Below, piece after piece: positions 12,428 through 48,579 of a stretch of 64,000 nucleotides of DNA (its first letter is position 1; each line of letters begins with the position of its first letter). A program made the translations under genes and the position numbers. The notes beneath the pieces were generated by a model that saw only the letters and a program-made list of their open reading frames with translations, made no database searches and was not told the origin of the DNA. Source of the DNA: a virus; IMG/VR virus record IMGVR_UViG_3300013006_001433, positions 14,159 to 78,158 of that record, one strand, 5' to 3'.

Positions 12428-12431
12428 TTTT

Positions 12432-12968
12432 ATGAAATACTTTGAAGAACTTAAAAAAGCAATGACCATGCTATCTGAGCATCCCGATACTCTTTTTATA
12501 GGACAATCCATAGAATATGAGGGAACTGGTCTTTATGATTCGTTAACTCATATACCAGCTCATAAAAAAATAGAACTACCAGTAGCAGAATATCTTCAAG
12601 CGGGCCTAGCGAATGGAATGGCAATAGAAGGTATAATTCCAATATCTACTTATCCAAGATGGAATTTTTTATTAATGGCAACAGATCAAATAGTAAATCA
12701 TTCAGATAAATTCAAAGAAATGTCAAATGGAAAATGTCTTCCTAAATTAATAATTCGCGTTGCGGTTGGTAGCGAAAGGCCAATAGATCCACAATGTCAA
12801 CATAAAGGAAATTTTTCAGAAGCATTTAGACTGATGATGAACAATACAGAAATAATTGAATTGAAAGAACCAGAAGAAATTTTGCCAGCATATATAAAAG
12901 CATTAAATAGAAATGATGGAGTTATTACAATACTTGTAGAATTTGCAGATTACTCAAAAGAAAAATAA
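12432..12968 (+). CDS. TPP-dependent enzyme, E1-beta/transketolase pyrimidine-binding subunit (short)
   Basis: FIGQ, ELPVAE..Q.G.A.G.A, DQIVNH, PQCQH. Likely start MKYFEEL at 12432. Lacks the C-terminal transketolase domain. Confidence 0.8.
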   Translation: MKYFEELKKAMTMLSEHPDTLFIGQSIEYEGTGLYDSLTHIPAHKKIELPVAEYLQAGLANGMAIEGIIPISTYPRWNFLLMATDQIVNHSDKFKEMSNGKCLPKLIIRVAVGSERPIDPQCQHKGNFSEAFRLMMNNTEIIELKEPEEILPAYIKALNRNDGVITILVEFADYSKEK

Positions 12969-12983
12969 CTTTTACAAATTAAT

Positions 12984-13814
12984 ATGAAAATTTTTTTAAC
13001 TGGAAGTAATGGTTATATAGCTAAAAATATATACGAATACTTTAAAGATCGATATGTTTTCTTTCTAGCTAACAGAGAATCAGTAGATCTTACAAACATA
13101 AATGATTTGAAAAACAAAATAACAAATTTTAAGCCAGATATAATTATTCATACAGCAATAGAAGGAGGCAGGAGAAATGAAGCTGATACAGCAGATATGG
13201 CTTATAGGAATATATTGATTTTTGAAAATTTAATATCCTTTAAAGAGCAAGTTAAATTTATTTTTAATATTGGATCTGGAGCAGAATTTGATAGGTCTAG
13301 AAATATTTCTTACGCAAATGAAGAGGATATATTTTCTGTATTACCAATTGATTATTATGGATTTTCTAAAAATTTAATATCAAGAAAGATAAATATTTTA
13401 AATTCAAATATAATAAATTTAAGAATATTTGGCATCTTTAATCATAAAGAATTAGTCTCTAGATTTATAAAAACTAATATTTTGAAAATTCACGAAAACG
13501 AAGAACCAATTATACATGAAAATAAATATATGGATTATATATACATGGACGATTTTTTAGAAGCATTAAAATATTACTTAAATATTGAAAAACCAAAATA
13601 CAAAGATATTAATATATGTTACGAAAAAAAATATAAGTTAACAGATTTAATTAATTTAATATATATAAATTTTAATAAAAAACAAAGAATAGATCAATAT
13701 ATGGTAAATGGATTAAGTTATACTGGAAATGGATCTAAAATAAATTCTTTAAATTTGCCATTTAAAGGAATAGAATATGGTATGAAGGAAATGATTAAAA
13801 ATATTATAAAATGA
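12984..13814 (+). CDS. NAD-dependent epimerase/reductase (extended SDR)
   Basis: TGSNGYIA, GSGAEFD, YGFSK, LRIFGIF. Confidence 0.85.
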   Translation: MKIFLTGSNGYIAKNIYEYFKDRYVFFLANRESVDLTNINDLKNKITNFKPDIIIHTAIEGGRRNEADTADMAYRNILIFENLISFKEQVKFIFNIGSGAEFDRSRNISYANEEDIFSVLPIDYYGFSKNLISRKINILNSNIINLRIFGIFNHKELVSRFIKTNILKIHENEEPIIHENKYMDYIYMDDFLEALKYYLNIEKPKYKDINICYEKKYKLTDLINLIYINFNKKQRIDQYMVNGLSYTGNGSKINSLNLPFKGIEYGMKEMIKNIIK

Positions 13815-14611
13815 AAAATACAGCCTGCTTCTTCTACTCAGACTCAGAAAAATATTCAAAATTACTAGAATGCGCAATGAACAGCTTTGAAAAATTTCAT
13901 CCAGATATACCGATTATTCTATTAACAAGAAAAGACCCAAATATTTATCAAGCAGTAGATAAATTTCAGCAAGCATTAAATATATGTTTGTATAATAATT
14001 ATGAAAAGGCAATTTTTCTTGGTGCGGATACTATAACATGCTCAAGGCTTGATGAGTTTCTAGAATCCGAAGAGGACATACTTGCCACGTTAGATTATCC
14101 TTATAGATTAGTTACAAAATATGTAGCAACTCCAGATGATCAAACACATGTCAACGCTGATGTATTATGTATTAATAATTTATCATTTATGTACAAACTT
14201 TGTGAGATAACCACGAAATGTCCAACAGAATATTGGGAACAAGGAGCACTCAATCAAATAATTTGGAATAGAATTAATAATTATTCTTGTAGAATAATAG
14301 ATGCGCCGTATAATACATCAAAAATTATCTATAATACCAGAGCAAAAGGAAATATAATTGCGCAATCTGGAGAAAAGCCATGGCATAATTATACCCAGCA
14401 TTGGAAAGTCTCGGATAATAAACTATACTCGCATGACAATAAACAAATTAAAGTTTTTCATTATTGCGAAGGTCTTGGCACACTTAATAATGATAAATTT
14501 GAAGAGATAATAAATTACTGGATAGATACAGCTTTTAATAAAGAAAGCAAAGCATTTTTTGAAGAATATTGTAATTGCGGTGATTTTTTTAAAAAGCAAT
14601 TCAAAATATGA
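13811..14611 (+). CDS. GT-A (GT8-like) glycosyltransferase
   Basis: FLGADT (DxD variant), HVNAD, EQGALN, FHYC pattern resembling GT8. Confidence 0.55.
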   Translation: MKNTACFFYSDSEKYSKLLECAMNSFEKFHPDIPIILLTRKDPNIYQAVDKFQQALNICLYNNYEKAIFLGADTITCSRLDEFLESEEDILATLDYPYRLVTKYVATPDDQTHVNADVLCINNLSFMYKLCEITTKCPTEYWEQGALNQIIWNRINNYSCRIIDAPYNTSKIIYNTRAKGNIIAQSGEKPWHNYTQHWKVSDNKLYSHDNKQIKVFHYCEGLGTLNNDKFEEIINYWIDTAFNKESKAFFEEYCNCGDFFKKQFKI

Positions 14612-15525
14612 AGATTTTAATAACTGGTGGAACAAGCATGGTCGGGAAACACCTTAAAAAGTATTTACCTAATGCAATTTATTTATCCAGCAAAGATTGC
14701 GATTTATTTGATAGCAAAAAAACTAGAGAACTTATATTAGATACAAAACCTAATAAAGTAGTGCATTTAGCCGCGAAAGTTGGCGGAATAATGGACAACA
14801 TATCTAACCCAGTAGGATTTTTTGAAGATAATATATTTATGAATACAAATGTTTTAAAATATTCATATGAAGCAAAAGTAGATCAATTCATTGGTATTCT
14901 CAGCACATGCATCTATCCAGATCAAGTTTCAGATAATCTCTATCCAATGAAAGAAGATTTATTGCATTTGGGACCACCAACTCCAACTAACTTTTCTTAT
15001 GGCTACGCTAAAAGATGCTTGGCCGTTCAAATTGATGCTTATAATAAACAATTTAATACAAACTACAATTATCTAACGCCTTGCAATTTATATTCAGAGC
15101 ACGATCATTTTGAAGGAAATAAAGCTCATTTCTTATCTAGCTTAATTCATAAGATTTATCAGGCTAAAATTAATAATACCAAAGAAATTAATTTAATGGG
15201 CTCTGGATCCCCTTTAAGGCAATTTATGTATGCGGATGATTTAGCCAGAGTAATACATTTATTTATTGAAAATAACATTATTGAAAATTGTAACGTATGC
15301 ACAGATGAAGTTAAAACTATTAAAGAAATTGCAGAAATAGCCTTAAAAGCTTGCGATGCTTCGGATATTGATTTGGTATGGGATACTACTAAGCCAGATG
15401 GTCAATACAGAAAAGATGCATCTTCAGATAAACTATTAAACATTTTTAAAGATTTTAAATTTACTTTTTTAGAGAATGGAATCAAAAACACATATAATCA
15501 ATATGTGGAAGCTAAACGAGTCTAA
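14608..15525 (+). CDS. fcl: GDP-L-fucose synthase-like epimerase/reductase (Fcl/ColC)
   Basis: HLAAKVGGI, LSTCIYP, YGYAKR, PCNLY, GSGSPLRQFMY, KPDGQ. Confidence 0.88.
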   Translation: MKILITGGTSMVGKHLKKYLPNAIYLSSKDCDLFDSKKTRELILDTKPNKVVHLAAKVGGIMDNISNPVGFFEDNIFMNTNVLKYSYEAKVDQFIGILSTCIYPDQVSDNLYPMKEDLLHLGPPTPTNFSYGYAKRCLAVQIDAYNKQFNTNYNYLTPCNLYSEHDHFEGNKAHFLSSLIHKIYQAKINNTKEINLMGSGSPLRQFMYADDLARVIHLFIENNIIENCNVCTDEVKTIKEIAEIALKACDASDIDLVWDTTKPDGQYRKDASSDKLLNIFKDFKFTFLENGIKNTYNQYVEAKRV

Positions 15526-16648
15526 CTTTACTTTAAAAGATAAGTGTAAAATAGCCAAATTCTTCTTTCAAAAGAAAGATATGTGGACTATGGGCGATCA
15601 AGTTAAAACATTTGAACGCAAAATGGCGAAATTTGCTAGTTCAAAATATGCTGTATTTGTAGCGAATGGTTCAGTTGCTAATACTTTAATAGCCATGTAT
15701 CTAAAAGACAAAGTATATAAACCAAATAAAAATATAATAGTATTTCCATCTACAACGTGGGTCACATCGGTTTCGCCATTCATCAGAGAAGGTTTTACCC
15801 CAGAATTTATTGATATTAACCTAGATGATTGGTCAATTGACTTAAACAGCCTAGAAAAATTTTTAAAATCTAAAGCTGAACATGTAGCTTGCATTTTTAT
15901 CACAAGCCTTCTTGGGTATACTCCAAATATTAATAAAATCAAAGAATTATCAGAAAAATACAAGGTAAAAGTAATGATGGATAATTGCGAAAATACTTTT
16001 GGCGAATTTGAAAATAAAAATGTTAGTTCTTTTTTTACTTCTACGACTAGCACTTACTTTGGGCATCAACTGCAAAGCGTTGAAGGTGGTTTTGTTTTTA
16101 CGGATTGCAAGGATGAATATGAATATTTTTTAATGGCAAGGAATCACGGCATGTCAAGAAGCGTGCCAGATCCAAAGCCTTTTCTAAATAAAAATGTAGA
16201 TTCAAGATTTGATTTTCATTTATTAGGCAATAATTTCAGAAACACTAATATTCACGCATTTATTGGGCTTCTAGACTTTGAAAGAATATCATTTTATATA
16301 GAAGAAAGAATTAAAATATACAAATACTACGAAAGCAAATATCAACACGCAGATTTATTACCTAAATATTTTGATGACAGACTGCATGTACCATTTTGTA
16401 TACCAATTATTTGCAAAAGCAAAGAAGAAAGAGATAAGGCTTTAGAGTTTTGCAGATATAATCATATTGAAACAAGACCTATAATTTCTGGCAATTTACT
16501 AAAACAAACATGTTTTCAAAAATATGGAGATTATAAAAAATATAAAAATAGCGAATTTTTGGATCAATACGCTTTTTACGTTGGCCTTCATAGTAAAGTA
16601 AATAAAAATATTTTAGATAAACTGCTAAAATATCTCAATAATATCTAA
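15503..16648 (+). CDS. PLP-dependent GDP-4-keto-6-deoxymannose 3-dehydratase (ColD-like, DegT family)
   Basis: TMG..V..FE, NGSVAN, DNCENTFG, STYFGHQLQSVEGG (His at the Lys position as in ColD), RNHG, G.NFR, ETRPIISGN. Lies between fcl and gmd. Confidence 0.8.
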   Translation: MWKLNESNFTLKDKCKIAKFFFQKKDMWTMGDQVKTFERKMAKFASSKYAVFVANGSVANTLIAMYLKDKVYKPNKNIIVFPSTTWVTSVSPFIREGFTPEFIDINLDDWSIDLNSLEKFLKSKAEHVACIFITSLLGYTPNINKIKELSEKYKVKVMMDNCENTFGEFENKNVSSFFTSTTSTYFGHQLQSVEGGFVFTDCKDEYEYFLMARNHGMSRSVPDPKPFLNKNVDSRFDFHLLGNNFRNTNIHAFIGLLDFERISFYIEERIKIYKYYESKYQHADLLPKYFDDRLHVPFCIPIICKSKEERDKALEFCRYNHIETRPIISGNLLKQTCFQKYGDYKKYKNSEFLDQYAFYVGLHSKVNKNILDKLLKYLNNI

Positions 16649-33091: not shown

Positions 33092-33949
33092 TTATAATCC
33101 AGAAAGTGCAGATATCAGAGTATTCACTCTAGCTTTCAACAAAGTCATATCCAAGTATTCTCCTATAGAATAAAAAGCTATTCTTGCTGGTACACATTCG
33201 CTAAGGCTATTATTTAGATTGGCCCGACCAAAAACTAAATAATTTGTTGTTGCATCTGGAGTTACACTTGCTACACTAGAAAATGTATAGCTTGATGATG
33301 CTGGAGAAGTAGTAAGTGGATAATACAGAGTATGTTGAGAAGTGCTATTTTTTGTAACACCATAGATACCTGCTACATGAGAAGAAGTTCCATAAGGAGT
33401 GAAAATTTGGCTTTGAGTGGTTCTAGCGCCCGCACCCATTCCCAATGCTCCAGAAGTAGCTTTAAAGAAAGCAATATGGGAAAGAGAAGTTGTTGGTGAT
33501 CTTGCCCCAATAAGATAATAATAAGTAGCATTTAGCGGAATAGTATTACTATGATGATATACTGATAAATGAAAATTATTTTGAGGATCTGCATTATGGG
33601 CTCTATTACTATTTAAATACTTAGTAGTACCATCACTTAAAAGACCAGTGCTTCTACTATAATCAGAAGATGTAAAAAAAAAGCTAGTTGGGGCAGTTCC
33701 TTTTAAGGGTACAAGAGCGCCATTTAAAGTTCTTGCGCCAGCAAGTATACAACAACTTTTTATAGCATCCCATATTCCATCGCTTTTGCATCCATCTATA
33801 AAATTATTAATAGCTGTTTTTACTGAAGACTCTAATGATTGACCATCAGCAGCCTCAACAGCAGCAATATATGTTGATGCTTCTGTTACAACAGAAATAG
33901 AATCTGAACGGCTTATAATTCCAAAAGAAACTGATGGTAATATTATCAT
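33092..33949 (-). CDS. putative tail-tip adhesin / receptor-binding protein
   Basis: ATGA-coupled to the gpJ-like gene. N-terminal peptide MIILPSVSFGIIS shared with 62330-63226. Helical N-domain then beta-sandwich-like region. Confidence 0.55.
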   Translation of the reverse strand: MIILPSVSFGIISRSDSISVVTEASTYIAAVEAADGQSLESSVKTAINNFIDGCKSDGIWDAIKSCCILAGARTLNGALVPLKGTAPTSFFFTSSDYSRSTGLLSDGTTKYLNSNRAHNADPQNNFHLSVYHHSNTIPLNATYYYLIGARSPTTSLSHIAFFKATSGALGMGAGARTTQSQIFTPYGTSSHVAGIYGVTKNSTSQHTLYYPLTTSPASSSYTFSSVASVTPDATTNYLVFGRANLNNSLSECVPARIAFYSIGEYLDMTLLKARVNTLISALSGL

Positions 33950-36900
33950 GCAGCTGTATTTCCGTACATTAAATATCCATTATTTCCTGTATGGAGTAGT
34001 GAAATTCCAGCGTATTGTCCTGCTGTTTTGTATTGATTATTGTAACTATTAATTAATACTCCCACTCCAGAACCAGTAATTTGAATTTGTCCTGCTCCAA
34101 TTTGAATTATTGTAGTGTTAAATCCTGTAATATTTCCACTTACTATTGTACCTGTAATTAATATAGCCGAATTTGCGAATATCATTCTTGCATTTTGTGT
34201 TCCAGTAATATTAAAATTAGCAGAAACATTTAAAAGGTCTGGCACAGCATTTATTATTTTTCCATTTTTAAAATCTATTCCAGAAGCAAATACGCCACTT
34301 CCACTAACATTTAAATTTCCACTTATTGTTAGATTTCCACTTATTCCTTGATCTCCAGTTATGTAAACTACAGAATTATTAAGTGCATTTGTTTGACTTT
34401 GTAATGAATTTCCTGTAGATATTAAATCACTAGCTAAAGCAATTCCACTATTATTCAAAGTTAAATTTCCAGAAGGCATGAAGTTTATATTATTACCAGT
34501 TATCACTACATCTCTTAAAATTCCAAGATTAGTTTGTTGAGCTCCAATGATTAAATTATTATTATTATTCCAACCAAAAACACCATATTCTCCAGTATTC
34601 GTACCAGTTTTATTGAACACTCTTAAGTTTTGTGGATTAGTACCACTAATAATATTTATTCCAGTTGTGAAGCTTTTTACTCCACCTATGTTTTGATTAC
34701 CAGTAGTAAAGACCGTTCTTCCACTTAAATTTGTTACTGCTGATTGTAAAGCAAATCCTGTTAGTATTAAATCTCCACTGACTTGATCTATTCCACTTTG
34801 CAAATAACCACTCATCGCTAGAATTTCTGAAGTATTGAAAACATTACTTAATGTGCCAGTTGCTGAAATTGGTCCATTAGTAGCCCAACTTAATGCTAAA
34901 ATTTGATTTGTTAATTTTCTATTGAATCTTACTCTATCTAAAGACACTTGATTTCCTGGATTTGGAAATCTAAAAAATGGATCTTGATCTAAAAATGTAT
35001 AATCTCTGTCATATCCAGTAAATGTTAACCATTCATTAATTAATGTATCGTAAGGCTTTATGTTAACGTAACCACTTTTAATAGGATTTCCATTATTAGA
35101 AAAAGATGAATTAGTTGAAAATACATCATCTGTTCCCATGTACATTTCTCTAACTTGAACTCCACTACTATATAATTCTGCTACCCAACTTTTAGTTTCG
35201 TCTGATAAAGCTTGATTTATGATTGAAGTGATATTCGCTTCTTGAAGCATGCTTTCTTTTGTTTCACTATAAAATACAAAACCGCCCTTAATATCAGGGT
35301 ATAAAGCTTTTAGTCCTGGAGTAGATAAATTAAAATTATTATCTGCAGTAATACCTACATTAATACTATAATCACCACCTACAGGAGGTTTAAGATCAAA
35401 AGATACATTATCATTTTGAAAATATCCCACTAAATAACCATCTGCATTTGTAAATCTATTAGAAGCTGGAGTTGATTGAGATGTCCATTTTCCTGCTGCG
35501 CCTGTTCGAGAATCTATAGCTATATAAAAACTGTTAATTGGTAAAGTAGCAAAAAAATTCAATCCACTATTGTTTGTATTATTTGGATATAGCGAATAAC
35601 TTATATTCGCCCCATTGTTTTCAGCAAATCCAGTAAATGTAGATGTATATATATTATTTTCAGAAAAAGTGCCAGTTATATAATCAATTCTAAATTCAAG
35701 ATCTTTTGCTTTCCAAGTTTTTAATAAAGGATATAAATTATTAATTCTCCAAGCTAAATTTATTCCATAATCTCTAAACTTATTTGCAGTAAGTAAATTT
35801 GAATTTACACCACTTAAGCTATCAAGGGTTGTTGAATATTCAAAATTACTTAATGTAATAAAATTTGTAGCATCATTTAAATTTGCATTTAAAAAAGTTA
35901 TAGGATTAGGGGATCCAGCAAGATAACCATTTGAAATATATCCATAACTATTTAATCCATAAGCTCTAAAATAATAATCTCCATTCACCGCATCTAGTCC
36001 AAAAGAAGAAGATGGATTTGTAACTACTATTGAGCCAATTTGAAAATCGTTTTTTGGAGCTTGTATTGAGTTTCCTTGATTGTTATAAAAAACAGTAGTA
36101 AGATCACCAGCATTAAAATCACTACCAGTCTTAGCAAAAATTTTCCAATAGGTCGTTTCTCTTGCTCCTGGTCCACTAGTTGGTTGAGTTTGAGCTCCAA
36201 TTACTCCACTTATTCTTAATTGATTTGTATACGAAGTTAAGTTAAAAGAAGAGGGTGTTCCTGCATCAAGAATTGTTGTGCTTCCAGGATCTACTACTGG
36301 AGCTTCTGAAAGAGAAATTCCAGATTCAATTGATGAATATTTAGAAGGATTGTATTCAATTGCATTAATATTAAACTTATGAGATTCATTTTCTGTTATA
36401 CTTATTACTTTAAATAATTCAGTTTCTGGAGTTAGATAAAAATTACCTGCACTACCAGTTTGTTCAATAGTCCAAACGGTTCCAGTTGTTAAAGCGTAGT
36501 TAGTTGTGTCGAATAATTTATTACAAGTAAGTCTTGTTATTGCTCTGTCTGGAGTAGGGTTATATCCAGAAATTCCACTTATATTGTTTATAGAAAATAA
36601 GCCAGTTTGTATTTCGGATCTTTGATATCCAGTAAGAAAATCATTAAAAGTTGTTCCAGTAGTTTTATGCGTAGGAGTTAAAATATTAAATTTATATTGC
36701 GGAGCAGAAACACCATTTAAATAACCAGTTAAATCTGAATATGATTGATCTAGAATAAATTCGTGAGAAGATGGTGTGGTTTTAATTCCTAAAATTCTTC
36801 CACCTAATCGATCTACTGTTCTATTACTATCCTGAATTTTCACTATATCTCCAGGATTTAAATATAAAGCATCATATCCTACTGTAAAATTAACTGTTTC

Positions 36901-39027
36901 TGTTTCATATTGCTCACTAGCTAACGCCCATTTTCCAATTCTATAAGCTTGACCGCGACTCGTACATCCAAAAGCAGTAATTTCAATTTTTCTAACTCCA
37001 TATTTTCTTAAACCTTCTGGATCTTCTGCGTATTCTATAGTTGGTTTTGCGAAATTAGACATATCATTCCATCTAACTACTGCAACAGTATTTCTTACTT
37101 TTCTACTGCTACTTGAATAAATAAATTCTCCATTTTCTACACTACTATTAGTAAATAAAGTCGATGCCTCTTTTGGCATATCTGCTGTAGCGTATATTAA
37201 TCCATTAGCATAATAAGATAACCCTCTAAAAATACTTGCAAAATCATTTATCAAAGTAAATGCATCAGAGAAGTCGTTAATAACTGTATTACATGTAAAT
37301 CTTGGTTCTAGTCCTCCAATACTATATCCATCTGAAACAAGAGTGTCGCAGTATCTCGCAATTTGATAAAGATTCCATTTGTCAACATCATAATTTTTAA
37401 TATACTTTCCTAATCCATATCTACTATTCGTGAGTAAGTCGTAATAACACCAAGCTGGATTATCTGTCCAATATAAACCTACAGGTAAGGACTGATGAGA
37501 AACATCAGAAAATTGACCATCCCAATCTCCATTGTATGTTTTTCTAATTGGATCGTAATTACTTGGTATTTTTACTTTTAATAATCTAACATCATAAGCC
37601 CTTGGTGGAACTTGACTAAAGTATTCAGTAGTAAATAAACTTTTAAACATTGCAACTTTTGGATATATAAATTTTTCTGCAAAAATTTCAGTAATAGTTG
37701 CTACACTAGCAACATCTCTTAAATTTATAACTTTAGATTCTGCAGATGTTCTAGTAATCTCTACTCTCCAACCGAGAAAGGAAGATTCTTCTGTATTTAT
37801 ATTATAAAAAGAAGAAACATCAAAATCAAATCTATGTAAAAATCCACTCGTTACTTTACCAGAACTAGAATCATCTCTATTTATAACTAAATTTTCAGAA
37901 AATCCAGATGAACTATTGTAACTTAATTTTTTAATTTTAAAATTATAAGTGATTGTTCTATCTCGAATATCACCAATTGTTGTGGATTGTTTATAGCCTC
38001 CAGGATAATCAGCTCGATCTAAATTAGGATCATTTTGTTGGTCATATAAAGAGTCAATTTTAATTGCTACAATAATTTTATTTACATTTTTTGATCTTAA
38101 ATCAATTACTTTCTTAAAATCCGATCCATATCTTAAAGGTTCATTAATATTTAATGTTCGTGAAGCATAAGGTAAGGAATCATAGGTATTTGTAGGCGTT
38201 AAACTACCCAAATTACTTTGCAAAAAATTGGCAGTTGTTTGAGTTCCATAATCTGCTCTAAAATTAATAGATGTATAATTAAAATTTCCTGCATCATCAA
38301 TTAATGGAACTTGCTTCCAATAAACTGATCTTAATTGTGGATTGCTTCCAGCGTAAGAAGCAAAATTCGCGGTTGTCCATCCTACATTTCCAAGCGTACC
38401 ATTATAACTATAACTACCAGACACTAAACCTTCGATTGGTCCTTCGCAAACTAAATCTGAAACTTCTGTTTCTGTTCTTGAAAGTTTTTTTGCTCCCTCT
38501 ACAACAACACCTTCTTCAGCTTCTACTGGAGTGTGAGGTGGAGGCGGAGGCGGAGGAGGCGGTGGTGGTGGAGGTGATCTTCCTCCTTTGTTATGCACAA
38601 ATATATCTTCTGCAATATAAGTATTATATTTTTCTACAGTAAAATTATAAACAGTAGAATCATTATTGATAATTTCTATATGATCTATTTTTATTCTTTC
38701 ACCAAATCTATCTACAATCAAATCATCTGTAGTAAAATTTGCAATTTCAATAAATTCATTATTTTGATTTAAAAAAGGATGGTTTGGAGTAGTTCGAATT
38801 TTTTTATCTTTAAAAAATACATCAATAACTTTTTCATTATTATGTATGAAAACATTTTCAACTGTACTAATTTTTATAGATAAATCTTTATCAAAACAAA
38901 ATACTGAATCTCCAATTTTAATATCTTCAATATTTTTATATCCAAAAGGTGTATATATTTTTGTTCCAGCGACAAAACATCCTGCGCCTTTAATTAATTC
39001 ATTAGGTAAAATATATTTTTTACTCAT
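33946..39027 (-). CDS. central tail tip/host-specificity protein (lambda gpJ-like) with N-terminal Hint domain and C-terminal fibre region
   Basis: CEGPIEG, WTDNPAWCYYDLLTN.RYG, EPRFTCN, AFGCTSRGQA.R.G.W, PGD.V.I.D. Last gene of the M-L-I-J block. Confidence 0.92.
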   Translation of the reverse strand: MSKKYILPNELIKGAGCFVAGTKIYTPFGYKNIEDIKIGDSVFCFDKDLSIKISTVENVFIHNNEKVIDVFFKDKKIRTTPNHPFLNQNNEFIEIANFTTDDLIVDRFGERIKIDHIEIINNDSTVYNFTVEKYNTYIAEDIFVHNKGGRSPPPPPPPPPPPPPHTPVEAEEGVVVEGAKKLSRTETEVSDLVCEGPIEGLVSGSYSYNGTLGNVGWTTANFASYAGSNPQLRSVYWKQVPLIDDAGNFNYTSINFRADYGTQTTANFLQSNLGSLTPTNTYDSLPYASRTLNINEPLRYGSDFKKVIDLRSKNVNKIIVAIKIDSLYDQQNDPNLDRADYPGGYKQSTTIGDIRDRTITYNFKIKKLSYNSSSGFSENLVINRDDSSSGKVTSGFLHRFDFDVSSFYNINTEESSFLGWRVEITRTSAESKVINLRDVASVATITEIFAEKFIYPKVAMFKSLFTTEYFSQVPPRAYDVRLLKVKIPSNYDPIRKTYNGDWDGQFSDVSHQSLPVGLYWTDNPAWCYYDLLTNSRYGLGKYIKNYDVDKWNLYQIARYCDTLVSDGYSIGGLEPRFTCNTVINDFSDAFTLINDFASIFRGLSYYANGLIYATADMPKEASTLFTNSSVENGEFIYSSSSRKVRNTVAVVRWNDMSNFAKPTIEYAEDPEGLRKYGVRKIEITAFGCTSRGQAYRIGKWALASEQYETETVNFTVGYDALYLNPGDIVKIQDSNRTVDRLGGRILGIKTTPSSHEFILDQSYSDLTGYLNGVSAPQYKFNILTPTHKTTGTTFNDFLTGYQRSEIQTGLFSINNISGISGYNPTPDRAITRLTCNKLFDTTNYALTTGTVWTIEQTGSAGNFYLTPETELFKVISITENESHKFNINAIEYNPSKYSSIESGISLSEAPVVDPGSTTILDAGTPSSFNLTSYTNQLRISGVIGAQTQPTSGPGARETTYWKIFAKTGSDFNAGDLTTVFYNNQGNSIQAPKNDFQIGSIVVTNPSSSFGLDAVNGDYYFRAYGLNSYGYISNGYLAGSPNPITFLNANLNDATNFITLSNFEYSTTLDSLSGVNSNLLTANKFRDYGINLAWRINNLYPLLKTWKAKDLEFRIDYITGTFSENNIYTSTFTGFAENNGANISYSLYPNNTNNSGLNFFATLPINSFYIAIDSRTGAAGKWTSQSTPASNRFTNADGYLVGYFQNDNVSFDLKPPVGGDYSINVGITADNNFNLSTPGLKALYPDIKGGFVFYSETKESMLQEANITSIINQALSDETKSWVAELYSSGVQVREMYMGTDDVFSTNSSFSNNGNPIKSGYVNIKPYDTLINEWLTFTGYDRDYTFLDQDPFFRFPNPGNQVSLDRVRFNRKLTNQILALSWATNGPISATGTLSNVFNTSEILAMSGYLQSGIDQVSGDLILTGFALQSAVTNLSGRTVFTTGNQNIGGVKSFTTGINIISGTNPQNLRVFNKTGTNTGEYGVFGWNNNNNLIIGAQQTNLGILRDVVITGNNINFMPSGNLTLNNSGIALASDLISTGNSLQSQTNALNNSVVYITGDQGISGNLTISGNLNVSGSGVFASGIDFKNGKIINAVPDLLNVSANFNITGTQNARMIFANSAILITGTIVSGNITGFNTTIIQIGAGQIQITGSGVGVLINSYNNQYKTAGQYAGISLLHTGNNGYLMYGNTAA
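38536..38574 (-). repeat. 13-codon poly-proline tract
   Basis: 13 consecutive CCN codons following Hint-KGGRS. Confidence 0.95.
38590..38979 (-). other. Hint (intein/BIL-like) domain, 130 aa, no homing endonuclease
   Basis: Block A CFVAGT, block B TPNHPF, block F VYNFTV...TYIA, block G VHN. The +1 residue is Lys. Confidence 0.9.
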
Positions 39028-39030
39028 ATA

Positions 39031-39723
39031 TTATGTTGTACGTTGATCTGAAGATGATGGAACATAATTATTATTATAAGAGGCAGATATAGTTTTTGAT
39101 CCAATTAATAATCTTCCGTATCCTATTGGAATTGGTCCACCCTCTCCAGCTGTATTAGATGGTCCATCAAAAAGATAAGATTTTCCACCACCACCTTTTG
39201 GGCTGGCTACGTCTGGTGCAGAAAATTCTGGAGCAAGATAAGGAGGCGGAGAAGATAATAAAGAAGCAAATCCTGCTGCTGCAAGACCAATACCTCCTAT
39301 AATTAAACCTATTCCCAGAGGAGCAGCGGCACCAGTAGCAATTAAAACGACTCCTACAACTATCAGAGCAATACCAAATATTGCTCCGAAAAGACCTCCA
39401 CCACCTCCAGCGCCTTCAATTATGGGTATTATATCTATGCTTTTTAATTCATCATCTTCAAATTTAGTCATTAAATTTGAATTAAAGACCCTATCAAAAT
39501 CGTCTCTAATTTCTTCTTCATTCTTAAAACATTTAAAATCTCTTTTATTAACTAGAACTCTATATTTTATATTTTCTTTATCTAATTCTTTTAAATTTTT
39601 ATAAAAAATTTGAGTATTTGCTTCAATAGCTCTTATTGCTTCTGAAACACTATTAACACTAAGTGACCAATTATTTTTTTTAATTTTTTCTCCAATTATA
39701 CCATGTAGTTGTATGTTTACCAT
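39031..39723 (-). CDS. tail assembly protein I (lambda gpI-like, ubiquitin-like N-domain)
   Basis: IQLHG, SEAIRAI, IIPIIEGAGGGG, Gly-rich hydrophobic segment, SYLFDG..NT..EG.PIPIGYGR..IGS. Confidence 0.88.
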   Translation of the reverse strand: MVNIQLHGIIGEKIKKNNWSLSVNSVSEAIRAIEANTQIFYKNLKELDKENIKYRVLVNKRDFKCFKNEEEIRDDFDRVFNSNLMTKFEDDELKSIDIIPIIEGAGGGGGLFGAIFGIALIVVGVVLIATGAAAPLGIGLIIGGIGLAAAGFASLLSSPPPYLAPEFSAPDVASPKGGGGKSYLFDGPSNTAGEGGPIPIGYGRLLIGSKTISASYNNNYVPSSSDQRTT

Positions 39724-39740
39724 ATAATATATTCCATTTA

Positions 39741-40856
39741 TTATACTGATTTTACTGTAGATGGGAATCCTCCAAATGGAATTCCATCTGCATGTGAACT
39801 GGTATATCTTTTTCTACATCCGCTTAATCTTTTTGTACATAGATCTTGATACCAGTAATTTTTATCTGTTGGTGGATAAATTGCACTGTTTAGACTATTT
39901 ATTTTTGCAACAAAATAATATTTGCACCCATTGATATTTATAAAACAAAATTGCCCTTTATTGTATACTCCAGGACTAGCAGAATTCCATTCTTGTGGAG
40001 ATCCAGGAGTAATAGCTACTCCTAATAATGTACTAATTATTTCATCTTTATCCGTAGCAACTGGGTATCCATTAGCTGGATTTTGAGAATTATAAACGTT
40101 ATTTCCGTATTCACAACCACTTCCTCTATATTCAAAACTACAAGATTCAGAATATATAGTTCTTAATGGTAATTTAATATTTTCTAAATCTAAAGCTGAA
40201 CTCATTTCGTATTCAATAAGATTTTTAGATTCTCTTAATTTTCTGTCTATATAAAAAATATCTGAAGGTAATTCCGCTAAAGAATCTGGATCAATCGCAA
40301 GATTATCATCATTTATAATTCCTCCATTGCTTTTAAAATTAATTGCGTCTAAATATCTCAAAAATGTTCTTCGCCTCGTTACTTTTAAACCGATAATATC
40401 TCCCACAGATTTAATTGCATTTTTTATTGTTCTAAAGAAATAGTCATATTGACTAATATTATTTTGATTTGAAAAAGTTATTTTAGGTTTTGGTAAAGTT
40501 CCTTTAGTTGCGGTTTCGTATCCTTCTACCATAATTGGGAATGGCAAGTATCTTTTTCCTTTCCAAATTAGTTGACCAACTAATTGACCATTTAATAAAC
40601 TTGAACTATAAGATTCTAAATTAATATCTAAATTATGAAATCTCAATATCCCATTGTCATCTAAATTTACTAAACCTAAATATGGATTTGGTATAGAAGC
40701 AGCGTAACTTAAATTATATAAATTTAAATCATTTTTTGCTTGAGCGATTTCTCTTAGATCCAATTCATAAAAATTAATTAAATTTGTAGGATTTAATTTT
40801 GATCTTTCTGTAAAGATTTTTTTAGTTCCAGCTTGTTGGTTTACATTTATACTCAT
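39741..40856 (-). CDS. minor tail protein L (lambda gpL-like)
   Basis: W.G..Y.P.P...EG, P.P.ITFSN, C...YR.SGC.Y, DLC.K.LSGC..R, FGGFP (four Cys of the gpL Fe-S site). Confidence 0.9.
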   Translation of the reverse strand: MSINVNQQAGTKKIFTERSKLNPTNLINFYELDLREIAQAKNDLNLYNLSYAASIPNPYLGLVNLDDNGILRFHNLDINLESYSSSLLNGQLVGQLIWKGKRYLPFPIMVEGYETATKGTLPKPKITFSNQNNISQYDYFFRTIKNAIKSVGDIIGLKVTRRRTFLRYLDAINFKSNGGIINDDNLAIDPDSLAELPSDIFYIDRKLRESKNLIEYEMSSALDLENIKLPLRTIYSESCSFEYRGSGCEYGNNVYNSQNPANGYPVATDKDEIISTLLGVAITPGSPQEWNSASPGVYNKGQFCFININGCKYYFVAKINSLNSAIYPPTDKNYWYQDLCTKRLSGCRKRYTSSHADGIPFGGFPSTVKSV

Positions 40857-40857
40857 A

Positions 40858-41427
40858 TTATATATTTGAAGTCTCTACAAAAGTAACAGATATATTATAA
40901 TTATTAAAAAATACATATCTTATAGACCAATCTTCACAAATAAATCTTTTTGGAAAATTTTGCGAAGTACTGTCAAAATTATATGGAAATGGTGCATCAA
41001 AGAAAAAATGTTGAGCCCCTCTTCTTTTACTTACAAAATGAGTTATTGCTCTTGTTTCTTGTTTATCTCTACCTTCAAATGTTAAGTTTAATTTTAGTAA
41101 AGTATTATTAATACCGTCTTCGGTTCTTTGTTCATAACCATCACCAAATTTTACAAGATTCATTGCTGGTTTAGATTGAATTTCTGAAGCATAATTTGAT
41201 ACCCAAATGAATTCTGGAGCTGAAACTCCAGCAGCAAAAGCGCTACTATAAGACCTATATCCTCCCCAATATGAATTAGCGGCCGAAGTAGGGGTATTAC
41301 CAATATTATTATTAACTAGACTATAATAATATTGTCCATTTGATGATGGGTGATATACAATATCATTCTTACTGTAAGTAGTAGAATTACCATAAACGCT
41401 TACGTCATATATCGAAGATTCTGCCAT
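40858..41427 (-). CDS. minor tail protein M (lambda gpM-like) with N-terminal extension
   Basis: VKFGDGYEQR..DGIN signature. Located upstream of gpL. Confidence 0.88.
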   Translation of the reverse strand: MAESSIYDVSVYGNSTTYSKNDIVYHPSSNGQYYYSLVNNNIGNTPTSAANSYWGGYRSYSSAFAAGVSAPEFIWVSNYASEIQSKPAMNLVKFGDGYEQRTEDGINNTLLKLNLTFEGRDKQETRAITHFVSKRRGAQHFFFDAPFPYNFDSTSQNFPKRFICEDWSIRYVFFNNYNISVTFVETSNI

Positions 41428-41479: not shown

Positions 41480-42532
41480 ATGTTAGCTAGAATTTCCAAA
41501 CAAAATCAACATTTATATATCAATAATACTGGCATTGTTGGAATCCAGAATTTTAATGCAAATTACGCCAGCCCAATAGAAATAGTTAAATCTCTTGGCA
41601 TGGAGTCAGTAACATATCATAATAATAGTAATGTAACAGCCGAAATTACTATAAATAAACTACTTATAGACAATGATCCATTTATTAATTTTATTGATTA
41701 TGATAATACGTTTTCTGGTCATGTTGATTATAAAAGTAGATATTTTGCATTTAATTCTGGTGTTTTAACTAATTATAGACTTGGATGTTCGATTGGGGAA
41801 ATTCCCCAATTAAGCGTCACAATTAATACATTGGGAGAATTTGGTAGTGGAGTCGCTAAACCAAACACGACATCTCTTCAACAACCAGAAATTGATATAA
41901 CAGACTATTCGAATATAGAGATTGATTTGGATGATTTTCAATTTAATAGACTTCAATCTTTTAATTTAAATATAACTTCAAATAAAAATATTATATATGC
42001 GATAGGCAATTCATATCCAGTTGATATTAAAATCATCCCTCCAATTATCGTTGAATTGGAATTTGGAATCAAACCAGACGATTATAATTTGAAAAACATA
42101 AGAGATTTATTATGTAAATATAAAGTAGACTCTTTTAGTATTAGATTTAATAAATTCAAAGATCCTTCTCAAGAATTATTTAGATTCACATTTAATGAAG
42201 CTTTATTCATGGGAGAAACTTTTGGTGGATCTGCGGATAGTTCTTCGGATGTTATTATAAGGTATCATGCATTTTTATATGATCAGAGAAATATAACTTT
42301 ATCTACTCCGTTAAATATTGGTGATACTGATGATCTTAATCCATCTCCAGAGTCAGAAATAACTACCTCTTCAGCTTTAGCAATTGGTGATACGAATGAC
42401 CTCAATCCATCCCCAGAGTCAGAAATAACAACTTCTTCAAATTTACCAATTGGAGATGCTAATCTTTATGTACCTTTGCCAGAAGATTCAATCACAACAT
42501 CTAATATAATTCCTTCTGACGCAAAAGATTAA
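41480..42532 (+). CDS. tail-tube-like paralog (inverted orientation) with acidic C-terminal repeats
   Basis: GVLTNYRLGCSIGEIPQLSV and LQSFNLNI...IYAIG..YP align by eye with the major tail protein at 58716-59822. Confidence 0.6.
   Translation: MLARISKQNQHLYINNTGIVGIQNFNANYASPIEIVKSLGMESVTYHNNSNVTAEITINKLLIDNDPFINFIDYDNTFSGHVDYKSRYFAFNSGVLTNYRLGCSIGEIPQLSVTINTLGEFGSGVAKPNTTSLQQPEIDITDYSNIEIDLDDFQFNRLQSFNLNITSNKNIIYAIGNSYPVDIKIIPPIIVELEFGIKPDDYNLKNIRDLLCKYKVDSFSIRFNKFKDPSQELFRFTFNEALFMGETFGGSADSSSDVIIRYHAFLYDQRNITLSTPLNIGDTDDLNPSPESEITTSSALAIGDTNDLNPSPESEITTSSNLPIGDANLYVPLPEDSITTSNIIPSDAKD
42293..42505 (+). repeat. about 3 x 66-bp (22-aa) tandem repeat
   Basis: ITLSTPLNIGDTDDLNPSPESE / ITTSSALAIGDTNDLNPSPESE / ITTSSNLPIGDANLYVPLPEDS / ITTSN. 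Confidence 0.9.
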
Positions 42533-45045: not shown

Positions 45046-48000
45046 TTAAAATGGATTTACTCCAGAATTGGCCACCCCAAAGGTCCATTTATTCTGGTCA
45101 GCTCGAATATTAGTTGAATCTGTGGTAATTTGTATTCTAACACCAGTAACATTATTTGCTAGGGATAAATCTTGAGTTAAAATACTAGTTGTTGATAAAG
45201 TATCTATTAGACTTGAAGTTCCACCTCCTCTGACCAAAGCTGTCATAACTAATCTATCTGGTTCTGTACTATTAGGTTTAAATTTGACTCTAATTTTTCT
45301 TGTATAAGTTACTGGCACAATCCAATCAGTTGTCCAAGGCGCACTTCCACCAGCAGTAATATTGTCTGTAGAAGTCGTATACTCTACATAAAGATTAGTT
45401 AATAAATCATTTGGTCTTGCTATTACACTATAACTCCAAAATCCACAAGTAGCTTCGTATGAAGCAATTTCTGCTTTTATAGTATCATAAGACTCAGTTT
45501 TATAAAAACAGTAAATTCCAACTCCAGGAGCTTGTATTACTGAATTATCAAAAGCATCATTGGTTATTTCTCCACAAATAGTTGTATCATAAATTATAGC
45601 ATTGGTGTCTGCTCGTCTAAAGATAATTCTATTTGGTACAGAAAATGTTCGAAAATTTATTAAAATCCATCCAGGATCAGATCCAACATAAGTTGTTCTG
45701 TAAGGATATTGAGTAGATGGATAAAGCCCTTCTACTTCTGGAAGCCAGGTATCAGATGCCGCAAAATTAGCCCTATTCCTTCCGTAAATTGGACAGGGAT
45801 TAAATTCTCTATATACTCCTATATCTTGAGTAAGATTAAAATCTGCTAAATCTTTTGCCCCTGTTAATGTGCTTCCATATCCATATCCATATCCAGTATA
45901 TGGATTATATTGATAATTACAATTACAATCTTCTTTATAAGCGTTATGAACATATTTTGAATCAGTTAATTCAAAACTTGATAATTTTCCAGCTACATTA
46001 ATAACGCCATCGATATCAGTATTAAATACATAAAATCTTATAGGAGTATTTTTAGGTACAATTCCATCCCATGGAGTATTTTTAAAATTGATAAAAGAAT
46101 TGTAGTTACTATATATGTCGTAAAATGTCATATCCATTCTTGGGTTTATTTCTTTTAAAGAGCTGCTACTATTTAATATAAATTGCCCAGAAGATAAAGT
46201 TCCACTTGTTCTTGGTAATGGCACTATATTCCAATAAAAATCTCCGTGTTCTCTTCCTTGTCCAACTTTTTGTAAACTATAATCATCATAAGCAATTGGC
46301 CCTACTGTCACTCCTGCATTAATAGGAGGATATACATCATGCATTCTTTGAGATATTGGATTACCTTGTGTATCAGCTAATACTTGAGAAACCGTTCCAA
46401 CTGCTGGTCCATTTGTTGCTAAAATTCCAACTCCATTTGGACCATTCATTAGGGAGACTGCTGTCCCAGTATAAGCTATAAATTCTATTGGAACAGAAGT
46501 AGCCCAAGTTGATCCTGTTGAAACGCAAATACCCAAAGATTCGGAATTTATGAAAGTTGCAGCTCCAGTTGTAATACCACTAGAATATATTTTATATCCA
46601 TTTGCTAATGTAGTTCCAGAAAATCTATTTAATGTTGCAAATTGTGCTCCACCCCATGGATTGTTAAAGCTGGTCCACACAGTTCCATTCTGACGATAGG
46701 CTGTTATATATGTAAGGGCTGGAGAAGTAGTGAAATCTGGAGTTGCAAGAAATTCTATGTATTCATTATCTGTACCAAAATCATCATAAGATATTTCGTT
46801 TAGCCATATAGATTTTGTTTTTGGAGAAGTGGCTGTTCCAAAATATCCACTAAATGCATTTATGTTTCCTGGAGAACTTATTGCTGTTTTATATACAGGA
46901 TCCATTCTTAAAGAAGTATAAAGTGTAAGTCGTGGTCCGATTCCACTATACGCTACAGTATAAGGCGAGTACCATATTACAGTTTGATTAGCTTCCGTGC
47001 CGCTTGTTATTACAAAAATTTGATTTGGATTATTTACCGAAATTCCTTGTGGAGCAATTAATCTATAATCAAATGGTGCAGGACCAAAATAAAAACTTTC
47101 TATAGCAAAATTTGAATCTGTTTTATTAAGTTCAGAAAAATTTACATCAATTCCGCAATATGCACAGTAGTCTATTTTCATTGAATCGTAATTATATATA
47201 TAATTTGGAATATATTGTTGTTCTTTTCCCCAAAGTTGTTCGTATCCGTATTTTCGTTCGTAACCATATTTTTGTTCGTATCCATATTTTTGTTCGTAAC
47301 CATATTTTTGTTCGTAACCATATTTTTGTTCGTAACCATATTTTTGTTCGTAACCATATTTTTGTTCGTAACCATATATTCTTTCTGGCAAACTATCTTC
47401 TAAACATTTTTTATAAATTCCACTGGCATTTGCGTTATTCAATAAATTAACTTTTAAAGATTGTATTCCTAACGCATCTTCACTATATCTATAAACTGCG
47501 CTTCCAGTTACATAACAATCTTCCAAATAAAAATCATATAAAAATCTACCATTTTGTCCTGTCCAAAATTCTCCAGTTACAAGATAATAACATGAATCAC
47601 AAGAGTCTTGGGATATATTACTAAGCGCTTGTGCATATGTACTAACAAAACTATCTCCGCTAGCATACCCACTTCTTAAAGTAGAAGTAATAGAATTTGA
47701 AGGGCAAAGTCCACTGAAAGTCACAGTATAGTCACAATTTGCGCAAGAAATGGCATTCTGTGCTGCAGTTTGTAATTCTAAAGATTCAGCTTCTGCATCA
47801 CAAACAGCTTTCACTTGATCTACAAAACTATCTCCTGAACCCGTAACAAATCCAGTAAAATAACAATTTGTATCATATTTAGAATTAGGAGTATACAATA
47901 ATTTAGTATTCGCTCTTCCAGTTAAAAGATCAATAGGTAATACTCCATAATTAGATATAGTTAAATTAATTCCATTAGATATGTCTACTCCTTGATTTGA

Positions 48001-48579
48001 AGTGGGATTTCCTCCGCTTATTTTAAAAAAATAAGTTGTGTTACCGCTAAGTTCAAAAGATTTTTTTGTATTTGAATTTATTGTTGTATCTATAATATTA
48101 GTATTGATAGTTAATCCTAATGTTAATTTAAGTTCATTATTAATACTATTTGCGCCAGTATAAGCAATTGTTAATGGTATTTTATTATTAATACATGAAG
48201 AAAAAATAGGTGATAAAGTATCTAATTTTCCAGTAATGAAAATTCCAGTTCTTCCTCCAGAACTAGGAGCAGATATTTCAAAAAAGTTTTTTCCTGTGTA
48301 AAATGTATGATTTAAAAAATTATTAGGAGATGTAGTGGCATTTGAATAGGTAAAAAAATTATGACTACCATATTTTAAATTATTATGAACTACTAAAGAG
48401 TTTGAATAACTTCCGAATAAATTATATGTTCCAGTTAAATTTGTTGGTACAGATTTTCCACTTATTAAATAACCAGTCAATATTGGAAAATTATTATAAA
48501 CATCTTCTGCGCAATCATATCCATATGTTTTAATTGCTTCTCCAGTATGAAAATTTATTGGCATTGATACTAAGCTCAT
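45046..48579 (-). CDS. large virion-associated protein (S/T/G/N-rich, Cys-rich patches, YGYEQK repeat, lamin-tail-like domain)
   Basis: Directly downstream of the tape measure. WLNEISYD..GTD.EYIE resembles a lamin-tail domain. C-terminal beta-sandwich-like repeats. Confidence 0.6.
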   Translation of the reverse strand: MSLVSMPINFHTGEAIKTYGYDCAEDVYNNFPILTGYLISGKSVPTNLTGTYNLFGSYSNSLVVHNNLKYGSHNFFTYSNATTSPNNFLNHTFYTGKNFFEISAPSSGGRTGIFITGKLDTLSPIFSSCINNKIPLTIAYTGANSINNELKLTLGLTINTNIIDTTINSNTKKSFELSGNTTYFFKISGGNPTSNQGVDISNGINLTISNYGVLPIDLLTGRANTKLLYTPNSKYDTNCYFTGFVTGSGDSFVDQVKAVCDAEAESLELQTAAQNAISCANCDYTVTFSGLCPSNSITSTLRSGYASGDSFVSTYAQALSNISQDSCDSCYYLVTGEFWTGQNGRFLYDFYLEDCYVTGSAVYRYSEDALGIQSLKVNLLNNANASGIYKKCLEDSLPERIYGYEQKYGYEQKYGYEQKYGYEQKYGYEQKYGYEQKYGYERKYGYEQLWGKEQQYIPNYIYNYDSMKIDYCAYCGIDVNFSELNKTDSNFAIESFYFGPAPFDYRLIAPQGISVNNPNQIFVITSGTEANQTVIWYSPYTVAYSGIGPRLTLYTSLRMDPVYKTAISSPGNINAFSGYFGTATSPKTKSIWLNEISYDDFGTDNEYIEFLATPDFTTSPALTYITAYRQNGTVWTSFNNPWGGAQFATLNRFSGTTLANGYKIYSSGITTGAATFINSESLGICVSTGSTWATSVPIEFIAYTGTAVSLMNGPNGVGILATNGPAVGTVSQVLADTQGNPISQRMHDVYPPINAGVTVGPIAYDDYSLQKVGQGREHGDFYWNIVPLPRTSGTLSSGQFILNSSSSLKEINPRMDMTFYDIYSNYNSFINFKNTPWDGIVPKNTPIRFYVFNTDIDGVINVAGKLSSFELTDSKYVHNAYKEDCNCNYQYNPYTGYGYGYGSTLTGAKDLADFNLTQDIGVYREFNPCPIYGRNRANFAASDTWLPEVEGLYPSTQYPYRTTYVGSDPGWILINFRTFSVPNRIIFRRADTNAIIYDTTICGEITNDAFDNSVIQAPGVGIYCFYKTESYDTIKAEIASYEATCGFWSYSVIARPNDLLTNLYVEYTTSTDNITAGGSAPWTTDWIVPVTYTRKIRVKFKPNSTEPDRLVMTALVRGGGTSSLIDTLSTTSILTQDLSLANNVTGVRIQITTDSTNIRADQNKWTFGVANSGVNPF
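47233..47376 (-). repeat. 8 x 18-bp coding tandem repeat (YGYEQK)
   Basis: Unit TATGGTTACGAACAAAAA: six YGYEQK, then YGYERK and YGYEQL. Confidence 0.97.

Follow-up and report, generated by a model that had tools for sequence, protein, structure and literature searches.

Within the 64,000-nt window analyzed here, which spans bases 14159-78158 of a 78-kb linear viral contig from IMG/VR (IMGVR_UViG_3300013006_001433), the gene for a gpJ-like central tail fiber protein carries a 130-aa Hint domain close to its N-terminus. We consider it probable that this insert is an active, mobile, and self-excising Hint of the type-A bacterial intein-like (BIL) kind, which resides in a Gly-rich linker behind a leader resembling a ubiquitin tail and which is no replacement for the tail protein gpK. 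The gpJ gene and its N-terminal elements are organized as follows:

33946..39027, minus strand: gpJ-like central tail fiber/tip attachment protein, 1693 aa (PF13550, Phage-tail_3, E 2.7e-16; phrog_31 'central tail fiber J', E 7e-131)
38980..39027, minus strand: leader MSKKYILPNELIKGAG (N-extein), 16 aa, similar to a ubiquitin tail and homologous to the N-terminus of Hint-less gpJ
38590..38979, minus strand: Hint domain, 130 aa, Cys17-Asn146, with T80-x-x-H83 and H145-N146 (PF07591, AlphaFold2, Foldseek, phmmer)
38587..38589, minus strand: +1 residue Lys147, no Cys/Ser/Thr nucleophile (from the sequence)
38536..38586, minus strand: flexible linker GGRS-P13 between Hint and gpJ body (P13 at 38536-38574), matched by length-variable G/S/P-rich linkers in Hint-less relatives
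38518..38535, minus strand: HTPVEA, the start of the conserved gpJ body; H-T-P-x-E is kept in relatives with or without Hint

The protein starts with MSKKYILPNELIKGAG, continues with the Hint (CFVAGT...TPNHPF...FVHN), and passes through KGGRS-P13 into HTPVEA, and the primary translation product of gpJ is accordingly predicted to be a precursor that contains leader and Hint at its N-terminus. The Pfam family PT-HINT (PF07591) matched gpJ residues 25-146 with an E-value of 3.7e-10 (40.6 bits, cut-off 27.7), and a second search with PF07591 reached 46.2 bits at the cut-off of 27.7. The AlphaFold2 (AF2) model, for which 23 sequences served as input, showed a predicted local distance difference test score (pLDDT) above 90 across residues 20-145. 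In a Foldseek search, the top match was the BIL domain of Clostridium thermocellum (2LWY; 30% identity, template modeling score 0.85), followed by BIL2 of Tetrahymena BUBL1 (6Y75) on ranks 2-5 and by mini-inteins and Hedgehog domains at lower ranks. A total of 66 PDB matches was obtained at E<=0.001, and every one of the matches listed was a BIL, intein, or Hedgehog domain. During the phmmer search against the PDB, 2LWY was the sole strong match (E 2.6e-13, residues 17-146 versus 4-138), while the next one, the NrdJ-1 intein, reached an E-value of 3.5e-4. The nearest cellular homologues of the window Hint were found in RHS/WapA-type toxins, with 35-40% identity. BIL and PT-HINT domains are familiar from bacterial surface proteins and toxins. 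The site in the window phage is a variable Gly/Pro linker, yet one that belongs to a conserved phage structural protein.

The catalytic residues were conserved among the relatives of the domain. C17, H83, H145, and N146 were each found in 39 out of 39 unique tail-tip Hints and T80 in 37 of them, at identities down to approximately 30%. At the +1 position, these 39 gpJ and gpI Hints carried Lys (15), Gly (11), Ala (8), Arg (3), or Ile (2), but never Cys, Ser, or Thr; in all 25 further gpI Hints the +1 residue was Gly, and the window clade, with its 15 unique Hints, had Lys throughout. The residue in front of the domain (-1) was Gly in 29 of the 39. The ratio of nonsynonymous to synonymous substitutions (dN/dS) of the Hint ranged from 0.24 to 0.31 and was close to the value for the gpJ body. 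With the high pLDDT of the predicted structure and the conservation in dozens of homologues, membership in the Hint fold can be regarded as confirmed and lies far above chance.

As no Cys, Ser, or Thr is present at +1, canonical splicing is excluded. Judging from its terminal His-Asn, the lack of a +1 nucleophile, and its closer relationship to A-type BIL domains than to inteins, the gpJ insert would be classified as a type-A BIL-like Hint. The original prediction had described a Hint in gpJ with Cys1, His-Asn, and Lys at +1, and all of these elements were found where it had placed them; its view that the domain is BIL-like and incapable of canonical splicing agrees with 2LWY as closest match, the conserved catalytic residues, and the missing nucleophile. 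Type-A BILs, defined by His-Asn without a +1 nucleophile, yield mostly cleavage products, and aminolytic splicing is possible as well (PMC4031507; PMC7765530). In the mechanism we propose on the basis of the conserved residues, a thioester would arise from the peptide bond between Gly16 and Cys17 through the action of Cys17 and T80-x-x-H83, and Asn146 would cyclize to a succinimide with the participation of His145, cutting the bond between Asn146 and Lys147. Since Lys occupies the +1 position, no branched ester intermediate would be formed, and the domain would therefore leave the precursor mainly by cleavage. The main product would be a gpJ beginning with Lys147-GGRS-P13-HTPVEA, and in a fraction of the molecules the freed amine might attack the thioester and rejoin the chain, as reported for type-A BILs. 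Autoprocessing of gpJ by its Hint thus appears likely from the residues present. Cleavage, aminolytic splicing, and ligation to a Lys each have a precedent and cannot be distinguished in silico.

Related Hints were found in several tail proteins, and the common denominator of their sites is a poly-Gly linker. Within the window clade, the gpJ Hint is located 0-5 Gly past the GAG of the leader, and over all relatives the distance is 0-10 Gly, which places the domain in the poly-Gly linker and not strictly at GAG. The position at the GAG motif, as originally described, therefore holds for the window gpJ, while for the relatives it has to be widened to the linker. The Hint-less gpJ P0008, which is 83% identical to the window gpJ in the N-terminal region, reads MSEKYTLSDELIKGAG-GRRRGGGSP10HTPVEA, and other Hint-less gpJ read ...KKIYPKIIRGAG-GGGS...PPP.PHTPVEA; these sequences of close relatives imply that the insertion of the Hint was precise. 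Tandem double Hints, split by GGGGKGG and each with Cys1, His-Asn, and Gly at +1, were present in three gpJ (P0017, P0018, P0020), and in a distant gpJ clade (L051 and others) the Hint is also located in the leader, where MTRIVGAGGGGGGG is followed directly by CF...VHN and a +1 Ala.

In another group (P0038-43, L006, L030), the Hint joins a 700-1100-aa N-terminal extension to the gpJ body. The gpJ of L006 (10947-16466) and L030 (10964-16330), with extensions of 700-1000 aa, have the Hint at this junction, and at the same junction of the L028 gpJ (10893-15950) a short unrelated segment without Hint was observed. With this segment in place of the Hint, chain continuity seems to be tolerated between the extension and the gpJ body.

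With regards to gpI, Hints were found behind the ubiquitin-like domain, immediately past GAG in L013/14 and 8-10 Gly further in L006, L028, and L030. Four of these genes, in which the Hint separates the ubiquitin-like domain from the structural part at the C-terminus and gpK is encoded next door, are:

L006:9641-10945: gpI with ubiquitin-like domain and Hint
L014:9701-10816: gpI with ubiquitin-like domain and Hint
L028:9638-10960: gpI with ubiquitin-like domain and Hint
L030:9641-10960: gpI with ubiquitin-like domain and Hint

Approximately 28 further gpI protein clusters with Hint (P0108-P0135) were recovered, with Hint-less sisters at 70% identity. Tape-measure-like proteins (PF10145; P0089, P0092, P0095) also carry a Hint in a Gly linker, in which GGGKGGG precedes CF...HN and KGGKGGGG follows it. 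Because of these tape-measure-like cases, cleavage-type Hints may occur quite generally in the Gly linkers of phage tail proteins. The family comprises at least 18 gpJ clusters, about 28 gpI clusters, and the tape-measure-like proteins. Among 50,697 deposited phage genomes, no Hint-bearing gpI or gpJ was found by tblastn with the N-termini of Hint-bearing gpJ and gpI; the matches obtained were true inteins in helicases or terminases, or gpJ bodies without Hint, and a match in a Ruminococcus phage was located within an unannotated protein and was uninformative. A megablast search of the tail block against deposited phages returned no match. Neither for gpI nor for gpJ was a Hint described in the literature searched: in the phiCbK and CBB papers the term appears for terminase inteins only, and a Hint in TAPI is not mentioned by Iyer and colleagues in 2006 (PMC1779556).

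The presence of the Hint changed repeatedly among the gpJ relatives. On a tree of 43 gpJ bodies, at least six changes of Hint state were counted, five of which are forced by supported branches. The Hint-less P0008 is nested among Hint-bearing gpJ, and the Hint-bearing P0014 is the sister of P0021, which has none. This repeated gain and loss among close gpJ implies that tail maturation does not require the Hint. For the pair of the window and L085, the synonymous divergence (dS) amounted to 0.39 in the Hint and 0.90 in the gpJ body, so the cassette is younger than its host gene. On the Hint tree, the Hints of the window clade, the double Hints, the gpJ-internal ones, and the L006-type gpI Hints were grouped together with a Shimodaira-Hasegawa-like approximate likelihood ratio test (SH-aLRT) value of 93, whereas the clade-B gpJ Hints and the L013 gpI Hint were placed among cellular PT-HINT domains, which suggests that the latter may be separate acquisitions. 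All trees came from 'quick' searches with SH-aLRT support only, and the Hint tree is to be read as indicative. In our reading, the Hint is a dispensable mobile cassette that moves among poly-Gly linkers, namely those of the gpJ leader, of gpJ-internal sites, and of gpI behind the ubiquitin-like domain.

The contig has a G+C content of approximately 30% and a CheckV completeness of 51%, and its tail-tip genes follow the lambda-type order M-L-I-J on the minus strand. Upstream of gpJ, three genes complete this block:

40858..41427, minus strand: gpM-like distal tail protein (PF05939, E 4e-19)
39741..40856, minus strand: gpL-like minor tail protein, 371 aa (PF05100, E 1.2e-33)
39031..39723, minus strand: gpI-like tail assembly protein, 230 aa (phrog_32 'tail assembly protein', E 8.5e-35)

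The gap from gpL to gpI is exactly 17 nt, which leaves no room for a gene, as had been noticed in the original prediction together with the missing gpK. The additional proposal that the Hint might take over the gpK step was not borne out. When the whole contig was searched with PF14464, two tandem gpK genes (JAB plus NlpC/P60) were found at contig 8345-9872, approximately 44 kb away from the tail block:

contig 9096-9872, minus strand: gpK copy 1 (phrog_30, E 6e-35; PF14464), JAB motif intact, NlpC/P60 Cys and His kept
contig 8345-9103, minus strand: gpK copy 2 (phrog_30, E 1.6e-22; PF14464), JAB motif intact, NlpC His replaced by Ser

Both copies contain the JAB motif E...HSH...S..D, and the neighbors of the pair are nucleotide-metabolism genes (IMPDH/GMP-reductase-like and class-III aminotransferase). 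With PF00877 alone, the pair was missed at the genome level and gave a weak match on the protein. The same gpK pair was observed in the Hint-less relatives L100-L102, where the NlpC His of copy 2 is replaced by Tyr. A loss of gpK from the phage is ruled out by the two copies on its own contig; in the window phage, gpK is relocated and duplicated.

For a broader comparison, a gene-order census was performed on approximately 95 loci around gpJ relatives from IMG/VR and metagenomes, in which M, L, K, I, and Hint were typed with purpose-built hidden Markov models, and the window clade was defined by a gpJ identity above approximately 45%. Of the scans for relatives, the metagenome scan yielded only three loci, the genome scan one unrelated Halobacteriovorax locus, and the K-based viral scan one distant locus. 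Within the window clade, the order M-L-I-J without K was found in three Hint-bearing members (the window, L085, and L086) and in nine Hint-less ones (L005, L090-L093, L095, L097-L099). The larger Hint-less records with any K were G003-G005, in which K is a tandem pair 30-45 kb from the tail block and copy 2 has no NlpC His. In every other lineage of the census, K is placed between L and I, the Hint-bearing modules included, with the Hint either in gpI (L006, L013/14, L028, L030) or in gpJ (L051, L058 with K truncated at the contig end, L072, L075, L079, L081). The position of K is thus a clade trait and independent of the Hint, and a link between Hint and absence of K is ruled out by the census together with the whole-record searches; Hint presence and gpK loss, whose co-occurrence had been proposed for testing, turned out to be uncorrelated, and this result, with gpK encoded elsewhere, is the one that the original prediction had named as its refutation.

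gpI begins with a beta-grasp domain that is ubiquitin-like and terminates in Gly; its removal by the JAB domain of gpK was predicted by Iyer et al. (PMC1779556). According to a 2025 conference report, the Davidson laboratory showed the cleavage of the gpI ubiquitin-like domain by gpK, and this cleavage times assembly (PMC12908700). In lambda virions, gpI is seen only from approximately residue 101-135 to 223, where it plugs the lumen, and gpK is absent (PMC10721106, PMC11101478). It follows that a Hint located in the linker of gpI has to leave the protein, and one capable only of cleavage would do no harm there because the gpI chain is cut anyway. The gpI of the window phage consists of an N-terminal ubiquitin-like domain ending in IIPIIEGAG-GGGG, a segment that is hydrophobic and rich in Gly, and a C-terminal domain. 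As this gpI is free of a Hint, its ubiquitin-like domain still needs gpK; a second Hint was searched for in the genome of the window phage and none was found. The gpI stop (TAA) is followed in frame by a single TAT codon and then by the gpJ ATG (window 39025-39033, minus strand), and read-through would fuse I to J. This arrangement is probably a coincidence, since it is not conserved in L085 or L005.

The gpJ leader (window 38980-39027, minus strand), with LIKGAG at its end, resembles the end of the gpI ubiquitin-like domain (window 39394-39450, minus strand), which reads IIPIIEGAG, as had been pointed out in the original prediction. The likeness of the leader pattern h-h-x-GAG-GGG to the final strand of the gpI domain and its Gly tail recurs in many lambdoid lineages (L031-L054 and others); one example pair is ...APVIS followed by GAGG in gpI and ...LIIGAGGGGKGGGG in gpJ. 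Because of this likeness, the leader is a candidate second substrate or docking site of gpK and its JAB domain. An analysis of GAG/GSG covariation between the gpI ubiquitin-like end and the gpJ leader gave no clear signal.

Several alternatives to an active, self-excising Hint have to be weighed. That the Hint performs a maturation step normally carried out by gpK, with gpK being lost, is hardly credible. The idea draws on the missing K between L and I and on the reported cut by gpK at the C-terminal glycines of the gpI ubiquitin-like domain (PMC12908700; predicted in PMC1779556), as the Hint follows a similar GAG. Against this stand the two gpK genes with intact JAB motifs on the same contig, the K-less block with a remote K pair in Hint-less relatives as well, the retention of K in place in about ten Hint-bearing modules of other lineages, and the Hint-less gpI of the window phage, which still requires K. 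A canonical class-1 mini-intein that splices via a +1 nucleophile has practically no probability left, even though the Hint fold, Cys1, TxxH, His-Asn, and a length of 130 aa, a typical mini-intein size, would all suit it: the +1 residue is Lys here, no Cys, Ser, or Thr was found at this position in 64 related Hints, and the closest relatives are BIL and PT-HINT domains and not inteins. This candidate is excluded by the sequence. An inactive relic that stays on the finished tail tip as an additional domain at the N-terminus is very unlikely. Some gpJ relatives such as L028 do have large N-terminal extensions without Hint at the junction, which would speak for this reading. However, relics usually lose Cys1 or the terminal Asn, whereas the catalytic residues are invariant or nearly so over 39 diverged copies with a dN/dS of approximately 0.25, and tandem double Hints exist. 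A Hint remaining in gpI would also precede the part that plugs the lumen, where there is no room for it (PMC10721106, PMC11101478).

A ligation similar to that of BUBL is rather doubtful. Here, the Gly16 thioester would be passed to the epsilon-amine of Lys147 or to a Lys of another tail protein, resulting in an isopeptide-linked leader or, in phages with gpI Hints, an isopeptide-linked ubiquitin-like domain; no E1, E2, or E3 would be required, and the JAB domain of gpK could remove the adduct. The Tetrahymena BUBL BIL2 on ranks 2-5 of the structural matches fits this idea, as BIL2 reportedly produces a Lys-epsilon isopeptide in the absence of an E1 and dispenses a ubiquitin-like domain in an ATP-independent manner (PMC8616854), and the gpI of related phages shows the order of ubiquitin-like domain, Gly linker, and BIL. 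Cys1 and TxxH are kept as well, though C-terminal cleavage alone would free gpJ. However, the +1 residue of other Hint groups is Gly, Ala, Arg, or Ile, the Hint was repeatedly gained and lost, so nothing essential depends on ligation, only a 16-aa peptide and no ubiquitin-like domain precedes the Hint in the window phage, and the transfer is deduced from sequence. An extended version, which we consider unlikely, would view the phage tail-tip BILs as E1-independent 'dispensers' that pass the Gly thioester behind the gpI ubiquitin-like domain or the gpJ leader to a Lys (Lys147 or one of a neighboring tail protein), with the isopeptide later removed by the gpK JAB domain. If true, this would be a self-contained write-and-erase ubiquitin-like cycle that times tail-tip assembly, a viral counterpart of the ciliate BUBL.

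Some observations also weigh against an active Hint that leaves gpJ by plain self-excision, which we nevertheless prefer. From reading the sequences, the leader motif (K-I-Y-P-K-I-I-R-G-A-G or LIKGAG) seems equally conserved in Hint-bearing and Hint-less gpJ. This would be odd for a leader that is discarded and hints that chain continuity might be restored or the thioester used. All Hints of the window clade share the +1 Lys, which turns up again in Hints of independent origin (L013 gpI, tape-measure-like P0089/92/95); this suggests that the residue may have a specific role beyond plain cleavage. Together, the leader conservation and the invariant or recurrent Lys leave room for aminolytic re-ligation or a BUBL-like Lys isopeptide. 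Furthermore, all chemical steps of the self-excision are extrapolated from conserved residues, and the trees behind its mobility are the quick ones mentioned above.

The domain type and its chemistry are known; new are the host proteins, the site beside a ubiquitin-like tail, and the viral arrangement of ubiquitin-like domain and BIL. A sizeable and so far uncultured family of Hints is thereby added to the tail-tip assembly proteins of siphophages, always in poly-Gly linkers and often just past the ubiquitin-like tail motif at which gpK reportedly cuts gpI. The family offers a collection of natural cleavage-type Hints, whose +1 residue is Lys, Gly, or Ala, for studies of nucleophile-free splicing and ligation, and a parallel in viruses of prokaryotes to the ciliate arrangement of ubiquitin-like domain and BIL (BUBL). 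The gpJ N-terminal leader as a second substrate or docking site of gpK is a lead that follows from this work, while the tempting idea of a Hint in place of gpK is removed. The Bil defense system tags the central tail fiber (bioRxiv 10.1101/2023.09.04.556158), and a link of the Hint to such ubiquitin-like host defenses, which had been suggested as well, found no support in these data.

Two further open reading frames near the tail-tip genes were noted. One of 350 aa (window 41480-42532, plus strand) lies on the opposite strand within the tail block and contains three repeats of approximately 20 aa (...IGDT.DLNPSPESEITTSS...), without a family match. The other encodes a 1177-aa protein (window 45046-48579, minus strand) upstream of the tail-tip genes with seven tandem YGYEQK repeats and no match to the Pfam/PHROG families tested.

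Compared with known systems, the window Hint shares with the PT-HINT domains of polymorphic toxins its best Pfam family, above the gathering cut-off. PT-HINT is thought to free the downstream part through autoproteolysis (PMC3482391). In gpJ, however, the domain is followed by the gpJ body, which is the part matched by PF13550 and phrog_31, no toxin family was matched downstream, and the predicted release would be that of a 1547-aa structural gpJ from an upstream part of 16 aa. The lambda tail tip has the modules M, L, I, J, and K and the N-terminal ubiquitin-like domain of gpI ending in Gly in common with the window phage, but in the latter K is remote (approximately 44 kb), duplicated, and without the NlpC catalytic His in copy 2, and the leader and Hint of the window gpJ are absent from lambda gpJ. 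With the C. thermocellum type-A BIL (2LWY), for which thioester formation and Asn cyclization with dominant cleavage were reported (PMC4031507), the domain shares Cys1, TxxH, the C-terminal His-Asn, and the lack of Cys, Ser, or Thr at +1. It differs in its host, a conserved tail-tip gpJ (or gpI in relatives) in place of a variable secreted bacterial protein, in its site in a poly-Gly linker behind a ubiquitin-like tail with a conserved Lys at +1, and in being present or absent among near-identical phage genes. The Tetrahymena BUBL, in which BIL domains have ubiquitin-like domains on their flanks (BIL2, PDB 6Y75/6TMM), is matched in its order of ubiquitin-like domain, Gly linker, and BIL by the gpI of related phages (L006, L013/14, L028, L030, P0108-P0135). 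The window Hint itself has only approximately 21% sequence identity to BIL2 and is preceded by a 16-aa leader instead of a ubiquitin-like domain, and, unlike BUBL, the window phage also encodes the JAB deubiquitinase-like gpK.

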